64,000 nucleotides of DNA. Origin: Escherichia coli (lineage in GTDB: Bacteria > Pseudomonadota > Gammaproteobacteria > Enterobacterales > Enterobacteriaceae). Shown here one piece after another: positions 21,254 through 22,217 of the stretch (position 1 is the stretch's first letter; the number at the start of each line of letters is the position of its first letter). The notes beneath the pieces were generated by a model. The model was not told where the DNA came from. It saw nothing but the letters and a program-made list of their open reading frames with translations, and made no database searches. The DNA is taken from the NCBI RefSeq assembly GCF_044324875.1, contig NZ_CP172185.1. One strand, 5' to 3'. A program made the translations under genes and the position numbers.

Positions 21254-21967
21254 TTAACGCACTCTGACTACATTAATTTCGAAGTCATCAATCTGCCCGC
21301 TATTAAGTATAACGAATGTAGAACTCCCATTACTGTACGATTTCGACAACACCAGCCTGTCATCATAGCGTGCAAGAACATAATACCAGACACTATCATA
21401 GTGGAGCATCTGATATTCCTTCTTAAACTGGGGTTTGTACCAACCGGCAATAAGTGAAAATCCCCAGAAATAGATCATGAATTCGACCATCATACACTCA
21501 ATCCAGTGATGACGAATAAAAGACATTTCCGAAAAACATTTGACTGAAATAAGTCTTCTTCCTGACCTGACAAAAACCGTAATTATTAAGGCAGCAATAA
21601 CGCATAAAACCAATGCATCTAGCGCAACGCGTCGATGAATTACTGAAAACTCCAGAGCAGGCGGAACAAAAAGCAACAATATCGCCAGAAAAAGTCTGAT
21701 AAAACTCAGATCCTGCACATTATTTTTTTGTTTGATCCCCAGGAAGAAAACAACACCGACTCCCCACCCAATCAGGAATATAACAATGACTGTAACGGCA
21801 TAAAAAAGGCTTCTGGCCACATCATCGACACCAGCCCCAACCACCCACCATGGGAAACCATAATAAAAGGATGTACCCCAGCCATAAAAGTAAGCGCTTC
21901 CCCACCCAAGACATCCCATATAAGCAACAAAAAGTGAAGAGTACCTGAGCAGAGTACTGTCATCCAT
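21254..21967 (-). CDS. Hypothetical multi-pass membrane protein (about 5 TM segments plus ~70-aa C-terminal soluble region) in an AT-rich moron between Q and the tRNAs
   Basis: ORF track, 237 aa; strongly hydrophobic, Trp/Tyr/Gly-rich N-terminal half; low GC relative to flanks. Confidence 0.5.
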   Translation of the reverse strand: MDDSTLLRYSSLFVAYMGCLGWGSAYFYGWGTSFYYGFPWWVVGAGVDDVARSLFYAVTVIVIFLIGWGVGVVFFLGIKQKNNVQDLSFIRLFLAILLLFVPPALEFSVIHRRVALDALVLCVIAALIITVFVRSGRRLISVKCFSEMSFIRHHWIECMMVEFMIYFWGFSLIAGWYKPQFKKEYQMLHYDSVWYYVLARYDDRLVLSKSYSNGSSTFVILNSGQIDDFEINVVRVR

Positions 21968-22104
21968 AGCAACACCATTAACAACTCAAAAACATAACAA
22001 TATATTGCATAACAAATGGAGCTCCATGTAGTCAAGAAGCTTCATAGCAGGAAAAACTCATAGCACAATAGCTATCACATTTAATGTTCTGTGTCTTTTT
22101 CAGG

Positions 22105-22135
22105 TATAAAAAAACCCACTCGGCGGCGGGTTTTG
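22105..22135 (-). terminator. Candidate tR'-like intrinsic terminator downstream of the Q-like gene
   Basis: Minus strand AAAACCC-N10-GGGTTTT hairpin followed by a T-run, about 85-115 nt after the Q-like stop. Confidence 0.35.
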
Positions 22136-22217
22136 CTTGATTTGCCATTACGTACAAAATCGGCAGAATATCAAATTCACACGAAATATATGCCTTTTAA
22201 TCTACTTTTGCAATACT

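Follow-up and report, generated by a model that had tools for sequence, protein, structure and literature searches.

Between the late antiterminator gene Q and the lysis genes, lambdoid phages carry accessory genes (morons) such as stxAB, nanS-p, the nmpC/lc porin genes and tRNA arrays. Here we analyze one occupant of this slot, a gene for a membrane protein of the TfpB/STM1630 family, found on the minus strand (21254..21967) of a 64,000-nucleotide (nt) stretch of Escherichia coli DNA (contig NZ_CP172185.1); this whole stretch is hereafter called the window. The gene resembles the known morons in position and in its atypical composition, and it shares with them dispensability for phage growth, variability among related phages and transcription as part of the late operon (PMC9119081). 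However, whereas the known morons of this slot encode secreted toxins, an esterase or outer-membrane porins, the product of the window gene is predicted to be an inner-membrane protein.

The only member of the family to have been studied by experiment is that of Salmonella, STM1630, which is listed as a gene of unknown function in Text S1 of PMC6785131. According to the same text, STM1630 is bound by H-NS and is expressed by strain 4/74 in macrophages and in medium inducing Salmonella pathogenicity island 2 (SPI-2); its deletion in 4/74 led to a higher intramacrophage fold-replication, and earlier signature-tagged mutants had been reported to be attenuated in calves and chickens. STM1630 is also among 123 genes co-regulated with SPI-2 (PMC2639726), and every ST313 strain carries it with a broken −10 element (PMC6785131). 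As for motility, one deletion screen found the STM1630 mutant to be hypermotile (PMC4219756); when clean deletions were retested, STM1630 was not among the altered-motility mutants (PMC4534456).

The Pfam name of the family, PF27470 'TfpB', comes from Moraxella bovis and its relatives, in which tfpB belongs to a type IV pilin cluster and is not carried on a phage. Comparable in size are the TfpY/TfpZ/FimB-like pilin accessory proteins, which are 235-245 amino acids (aa) long, start with N-terminal helices followed by a periplasmic domain and are encoded next to pilin genes (PMC11841053). The same description gives the TfpY-like proteins three membrane helices and a domain of mixed alpha/beta type, unlike what is predicted for the family of the window protein.

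Family assignment and conservation

The open reading frame (ORF) runs from an ATG to a TAA codon and encodes 237 aa. The corresponding ORF is annotated as 'hypothetical protein' in the RefSeq record of a 99.9%-identical chromosome, that of E. coli strain 135, where the gene order is RusA, antitermination protein Q, hypothetical protein, tRNA-Ile, tRNA-Arg and lysis genes. A newer RefSeq label for an E. coli copy is 'STM1630 family protein'.

The original prediction, drawn from the letters of the window, had held the family to be unknown. This did not hold up: judging from profile matches, the protein is a member of the TfpB/STM1630 family, which is already catalogued. It matches PHROG 1521 at E=5.3e-89, with residues 17-237 aligned to positions 1-221 of the 222 in the profile, and PF27470 'TfpB' comes pre-assigned to a 99%-identical protein (P0001) and to every homologue in a large protein collection. 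When the window protein and 27 of its relatives were combined into a profile, it retrieved, at E=1.1e-62, a Moraxella protein of 261 aa (P0223) named 'protein tfpB' by JGI. The name-giving TfpB of M. bovis and relatives thus falls in the same family (profile E=1e-62), despite being 261 rather than 237 aa long and only about 26% identical to the window protein. A Moraxella caprae protein was also a Foldseek match to the model of the window protein, with the same fold.

The Salmonella homologue (P0069, encoded next to sseJ) is 47% identical to the window protein over its full length (238 vs 237 aa) and has the same predicted architecture. The published STM1630 knockout primer (PMC6785131) encodes NSSMLLAYLGGLGWG, which corresponds to residues 9-23 of P0069, meaning that P0069 is STM1630. 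Like the window gene, STM1630 is an AT-rich, horizontally acquired single gene. Unlike it, STM1630 lies on the chromosome between the effector genes steB and sseJ, with no prophage, Q gene, tR' or adjoining tRNA genes, and it has its own mapped promoter and a long leader (PMC6785131).

The family is small, amounting to 58 representative clusters at 50% identity in a whole-library search, and its named members belong to the Enterobacterales, Pasteurellaceae, Neisseriaceae and Moraxella. The common architecture comprises about 230-260 aa, with an N-terminal W/Y/G-rich motif, membrane helices and a C-terminal beta domain; length and motifs are retained down to 20% identity, across bacterial families. 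In a 28-sequence alignment, A25, Y26, W30, W40, A51, G175, Y195 and F218 are invariant. The residues that are invariant or nearly so across the family are all A, G, W, Y, F, S, R, P, L or V, and the alignment shows no conserved D, E, H, K or C, which makes it unlikely that the protein is an enzyme.

When the ORF was compared with eight homologues, the ratio of nonsynonymous to synonymous substitution rates (dN/dS) was 0.12-0.23, as befits a protein-coding gene under purifying selection.

Searches of other libraries were unproductive: NCBIfam gave no match to the protein, and a Pfam-A scan of the protein and 28 aligned relatives, in a set without PF27470, returned noise only (Cerato-platanin, E=0.31). 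Many homologues are truncated, and portions of the protein are matched by three fragment-only PHROG families (14371, 17164 and 3985); with PHROG 1521 this makes four matching families, each labelled 'unknown function'. Phase variation was considered and rejected, as the Pasteurellaceae, Neisseria and Moraxella genes contain no homopolymer or repeat tracts that would explain the truncated alleles.

A cargo gene in the Q-to-lysis slot

The gene stands out by its composition. Its GC content is 41%, against 51% for the window, and a 300-nt GC profile falls to 0.36-0.41 over 21200-22250. Both the GC (0.41) and the GC at third codon positions (0.42) of the ORF are below the 0.48-0.53 found in the Q, RusA, DUF968, holin, lysozyme and Rz genes. 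The upstream neighbor is a Q82-type late antiterminator gene (22218..22892, minus strand, with the RefSeq start at the ATG at 22886). Its product matches PHROG 304 'anti-termination protein Q-like' (E=9e-106), shares 76% identity with the Q82-like Q of phage 434 and carries the annotation 'bacteriophage antitermination protein Q' in a RefSeq relative. Two tRNA genes lie downstream. The expectation of a 237-aa frame in AT-rich DNA, placed as cargo between a Q-like gene and tRNAs in the Q-to-lysis slot, was therefore correct.

Immediately beyond Q, a sigma-70-like site, TTGCAA-17-TATATT (22185..22213, minus), occupies the position of the late promoter pR', upstream of a hairpin. It scored 9/12 consensus matches in a promoter scan, and the block containing it is conserved with the region immediately 3' of Q in phage 434; it would function as the late promoter. 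The hairpin is a tR'-like intrinsic terminator (22108..22134, minus), predicted by RNA folding to have a 9-bp stem and a 6-nt loop (22134-22111), with a U-run extending to 22108. The fold z-score of a 91-nt region containing the hairpin was unremarkable (−0.87), and a simple terminator scan called the hairpin on the plus strand only. However, every base of the hairpin aligns with the terminator annotated behind Q in phage 434, and phage 2B8 retains the hairpin as well despite having a different type of Q. This conservation argues for a terminator more strongly than the fold energy does and, together with the fold, agrees with the predicted hairpin and T-run in the tR' position.

On the plus strand, 22072-22142 gave a sub-threshold Rfam match (31.5 bits vs a gathering score of 54, E=0.084) to STnc370, an enterobacterial small RNA. 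The match overlaps the tR'-like hairpin on the opposite strand and is probably just the signature of a bidirectional terminator hairpin.

Homologues in phages occupy the same slot. A Q gene is present upstream, on the same strand, in 69 of the 80 viral contigs with a homologue, and in 67 of them the distance is 211-283 nt. Three query types, not cross-compared, served to find these Q genes: Q82-like (as in 434 and the window), the type of EDL933 and 2B8, and PF06530. Phages 434 and 2B8 were the sole phages matched among 50,697 phage records, all but three of which lack the gene. The 434 protein, CPT_434_68 ('putative membrane protein'), is 58.6% identical to the window protein, and the 2B8 copy is 59.5% identical. 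In both phages and in a prophage of E. coli O157:H7 EDL933, as in the window, the gene follows Q and the conserved terminator and is preceded by the same upstream block. What comes next differs: in 434 and EDL933 the following genes are those for TciB (DUF3927), a small membrane protein and a NanS-p-like esterase, whereas the window has tRNA genes there.

The GenBank record of 434 marks the region of the homologue as replaced in 434B. In this phage, DLP12 DNA has taken the place of about 5.5 kb, with Q, the late promoter and the lysis region among the parts replaced, and 434B propagated like other phages (PMC9119081). Since 434B is viable without the region of the homologue, lytic growth does not require the gene, whose product most likely stands outside the phage replication, assembly and lysis machinery.

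A conserved block upstream of the start codon

Downstream of tR' and about 40-70 nt upstream of the ATG, we found a conserved non-coding block, TTGACT-N18(ending TG-T)-TATGCA (22006..22035, minus). Over 33 distinct upstream sequences, TTGAC and TTTGTTATG are at least 90% conserved while the spacer is variable, and no reading frame is conserved through the block. On a plasmid of enterotoxigenic E. coli (ETEC), homology begins at the block, and the sequence farther upstream is unrelated. A simple promoter scan did not call the block, because its −10 lacks the final T. Taken as sequence, the block is a candidate gene-specific promoter of the extended −10 type, albeit with a weak −10.

Between the stop codon of the ORF and the tRNA genes, neither a terminator scan nor folding revealed a terminator-like hairpin. 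Consequently, Q-dependent read-through from pR' must transcribe the gene, the tRNAs and the holin gene together.

Homologues on virulence elements and chromosomes

The family is associated with virulence elements. Porcine ETEC plasmids (L016/L102) carry full-length homologues 0.9 kb from eltAB, near astA and stb. A homologue is also present in 106 Shigella plasmid records, including the virulence plasmid pWR501 (L101), where it lies at 135269-135985 in a region rich in insertion sequences (IS). The pWR501 copy is followed by a 138-aa ORF that has a hydrophobic N-terminal stretch and no PHROG match.

In one viral contig (L085; IMG/VR 2859677112_000002, 3540-5711), a stx1AB-like operon immediately precedes a homologue of 71% identity. 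The toxin subunits match PDB 1r4q (A, E=3e-172) and PHROG 851 (B); the conserved upstream block is missing from this copy of the membrane-protein gene.

Intact in the steB-sseJ islet of Salmonella, the gene survives as a frameshifted remnant next to the iro locus in an E. coli island of the uropathogenic (UPEC) type (L017). In a Klebsiella island, the homologue occurs with an STb-like gene, and an OLD-like nuclease gene is located about 6 kb away; beyond this island, no defence-type gene was seen in the contexts viewed. In Avibacterium, Gallibacterium, Pasteurella, Mannheimia and two Neisseria species, the homologue is found among housekeeping genes, at a site that differs per genus. Each of the three Moraxella loci read has tfpB sandwiched between type IV pilin genes. 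A conserved partner gene was sought across eight chromosomal contexts, and none emerged.

Within E. coli, similar DNA occurs in 1196 of 5426 complete genomes, including O157:H7, and covers at least 80% of the gene length in 459. The whole stretch from Q through the ORF to the tRNAs is present in 176 of 3243 matching E. coli genomes.

Predicted structure and topology

A hydropathy scan of the protein revealed four strong hydrophobic segments. The AlphaFold2 model, built from the 28-sequence alignment (pLDDT 78, pTM 0.68), places membrane helices at residues 4-36, 47-78, 89-110, 116-135 and 155-181, the first being aromatic/Gly-rich and weakly hydrophobic. The N-terminal third as a whole is rich in W, Y, F and G. 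Two structural features foreseen in the original prediction, namely about five transmembrane segments and an aromatic/Gly-rich N-terminal part, were accordingly recovered, the former through structure prediction. In the model, the C-terminal domain (residues 184-235) is five-stranded and all-beta, forming a small beta-barrel.

Across the family, K/R residues make loop 2 (net +1.9) and loop 4 (net +2.2) positive, unlike loops 1 and 3, which points to a cytoplasmic N terminus and a periplasmic beta domain. Four divergent homologues have a pair of cysteines flanking a hairpin of the C-terminal domain, a pair that fits a periplasmic disulfide. We infer that the beta domain is probably periplasmic.

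No solved structure was found to be similar: sequence searches of the PDB returned noise from G protein-coupled receptors (GPCRs) with the protein (E=0.07) and zero matches with the family profile. Against AFDB50, Foldseek retrieved family members from six genera with TM-scores of 0.6-0.9. Ranks 28-50 of the same search were uncharacterised membrane proteins of ~250-290 aa from Bacillus, Paenibacillus, Heyndrickxia, Salinicoccus, Buttiauxella, Klebsiella and Salmonella, with whole-model TM-scores of 0.55-0.67 and identities of 12-18%. A few of these low-identity matches are labelled 'ABC transporter permease' or DUF1616. Judging from the models, they may represent a wider fold superfamily.

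Neighboring features of the window

The two tRNA genes downstream of the ORF are both on the minus strand. The nearer one (21056-21131) has a CAU anticodon and was found by ARAGORN and by the Rfam tRNA model (72.5 bits); RefSeq calls it tRNA-Ile, of the AUA-reading type. The second (20978-21054; ARAGORN, Rfam 53.8 bits) is a tRNA-Arg(UCU), which reads AGA. Of the 13 Arg codons in the ORF, 8 are AGA or AGG, compared with 1-3 in neighboring phage genes, and ATA accounts for 4 of the 18 Ile codons. The adjacent tRNA-Arg(UCU) and AUA-reading tRNA fit these rare codons of the ORF. A CAU tRNA is the first in the downstream array in 20 of the 21 viral loci having a tRNA array (about 21 contigs). The frameshifted remnant in L017 keeps a tRNA-Arg directly after the gene, and the gene and the tRNA therefore seem to travel together.

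Directly after the tRNA-Arg, the minus-strand segment 20903-20975 gave a weak tRNA-like Rfam match (19.8 bits vs a 29-bit threshold), while ARAGORN called no tRNA there. Possibly, a third tRNA of the array has decayed here; related phages carry up to five. Apart from the tRNAs, the Rfam scan returned sub-threshold matches only.

The next late gene on the same strand is a holin gene (20290..20562, minus; PHROG 1350 holin, E=3e-29). The lysis cassette is interrupted, in that the holin (20290-20562) and lysozyme (19099-19632) genes are about 650 bp apart. The gap (19633-20289) contains an opposite-strand ORF (19756-20133, plus) that matches the C-terminal part of PHROG 1853 only and is annotated in a RefSeq relative as an incomplete pseudogene.

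Farther away, in the early-right region, the opposite strand carries a ParD/ParE-type toxin-antitoxin pair (24654-25279, plus), according to the annotation of a near-identical RefSeq record. A 171-aa gene of strain 135 (L001 10585-11100) is represented in the window by 135 aa only (25484-25891). A 340-aa ORF (25999-27021, plus), which by eye looks like an IS21-family transposase, begins where the strain 135 gene would continue. This arrangement suggests that 25484-27021 includes an insertion absent from strain 135.

Proposed role and alternative explanations

We favor, tentatively and at somewhat less than an even chance, the reading that the window gene is a lysogenic-conversion cargo gene, or moron, for an envelope factor of host fitness in animals. 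The gene, AT-rich and horizontally moving, occupies the position behind Q, pR' and tR' that in related phages holds stx, nanS-p or porin genes. It would be transcribed from pR' upon Q antitermination and may additionally be transcribed from its own promoter-like block downstream of tR', with expression in lysogens. There, the protein would alter some property of the envelope and thereby affect bacterial fitness in the animal host; it would probably be a non-enzymatic membrane adaptor or regulator acting via its periplasmic domain.

Several points weigh against this reading. The phenotypes of Salmonella STM1630 are modest, and no molecular function has been demonstrated for any family member. 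The classical moron anatomy is incomplete, as the candidate promoter has a poor −10 (TATGCA) and the gene has no 3' terminator. A K/R-rich stretch right after helix 5 is a mild counter-signal to a periplasmic C terminus. Finally, the linkage to toxin and virulence genes may reflect the shared ancestry of the Q-to-lysis slot instead of function.

A single multi-pass inner-membrane protein encoded as prophage cargo could also serve superinfection exclusion or abortive infection, as the original prediction proposed, either by blocking the entry of incoming phage DNA or by killing or depolarising infected cells. Many known exclusion proteins are, in fact, single membrane proteins. The small size of the window protein, the lack of a conserved partner gene, the AT-rich and horizontally mobile character of the gene and the Klebsiella copy about 6 kb from an OLD-like nuclease gene are all in keeping with such a role. 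We nevertheless consider it unlikely and found nothing that speaks positively for it, given that the ORF matched no defence family of PADLOC-DB v2 at E<=0.1 and no PHROG family with an assigned function, and that the chromosomal copies sit among housekeeping genes and not in defence islands. Moreover, the gene is retained on Shigella and ETEC virulence plasmids. The data on STM1630 tie it to SPI-2 co-regulation, animal colonisation and expression in macrophages, a setting in which no phage pressure would be expected, and not to phage resistance (PMC6785131, PMC2639726). A late-phase phage function (control of lysis timing, protection from re-adsorbing progeny or release of co-encoded toxins) appears improbable. 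Being the first gene after pR'/tR', with no terminator before the tRNAs and holin, the gene must be reached by Q read-through; the linked tRNAs would support high late expression, and in L085 the gene stands directly downstream of stx1AB, where the upstream block is missing. However, 434B lost the gene with the rest of the segment and still propagated lytically (PMC9119081), intact orthologues are under purifying selection with no phage or lysis genes nearby, and a PHROG search related the protein to no lysis category (holin, antiholin or spanin), whereas the neighboring ORF 20290-20562 did match.

The name of the family raises the question of whether the protein might, in analogy to TfpY/FimB, be an accessory or regulator of type IV filament machines, be they type IV pili, competence pseudopili or type II secretion. 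The name-giving tfpB is flanked by pilin genes in every Moraxella locus that we read, and the family is confined to the Enterobacterales, Pasteurellaceae, Neisseriaceae and Moraxella, all of which possess type IV filament systems. ETEC copies lie beside eltAB, whose product exits the cell by type II secretion. Size and layout, with helices followed by a periplasmic domain, are also reminiscent of TfpY-like proteins (PMC11841053). Yet outside Moraxella no examined copy adjoins pilin, pilus-assembly or secretion genes, and there is no pilin gene near the window ORF. The three helices and mixed alpha/beta domain of TfpY-like proteins (PMC11841053) contrast with five helices and an all-beta domain in the window family, and membership in the TfpY-like family is not supported. 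A 303-aa pilin-adjacent Moraxella protein of unknown family was also compared and showed no similarity (hhalign probability 0.2%). Overall, we regard a filament-associated role as having a small chance of being right. Far less credible still is a decaying, functionless remnant of an old cargo gene. The many truncated homologues, the fragment-only PHROG families 14371, 17164 and 3985, the frameshifted copy in the UPEC-type island and the STM1630 promoter broken throughout ST313 (PMC6785131) would suit it, but the window copy is intact and full length, dN/dS stayed at 0.12-0.23 in all eight comparisons, and length and motifs are kept down to 20% identity.

Implications

A speculative extension, to which we give slender odds, would make TfpB/STM1630 a mobile single-gene regulator of type IV filaments, by which the phages and virulence plasmids carrying it could alter the secretion of co-encoded AB5 toxins or close off pilus-dependent entry to rival phages and DNA. 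If true, a single mechanism would connect the pilin-locus gene of Moraxella with the prophage copies and with those beside eltAB and stx1AB.

Irrespective of the actual mechanism, the window copy is a typical family member in the usual prophage position, and the moderate importance of the finding rests on the spread of the family and not on this copy. The family is common on mobile elements of pathogens, from O157:H7, the Shigella plasmids and ETEC to the stx1 contig and the Salmonella effector islet.

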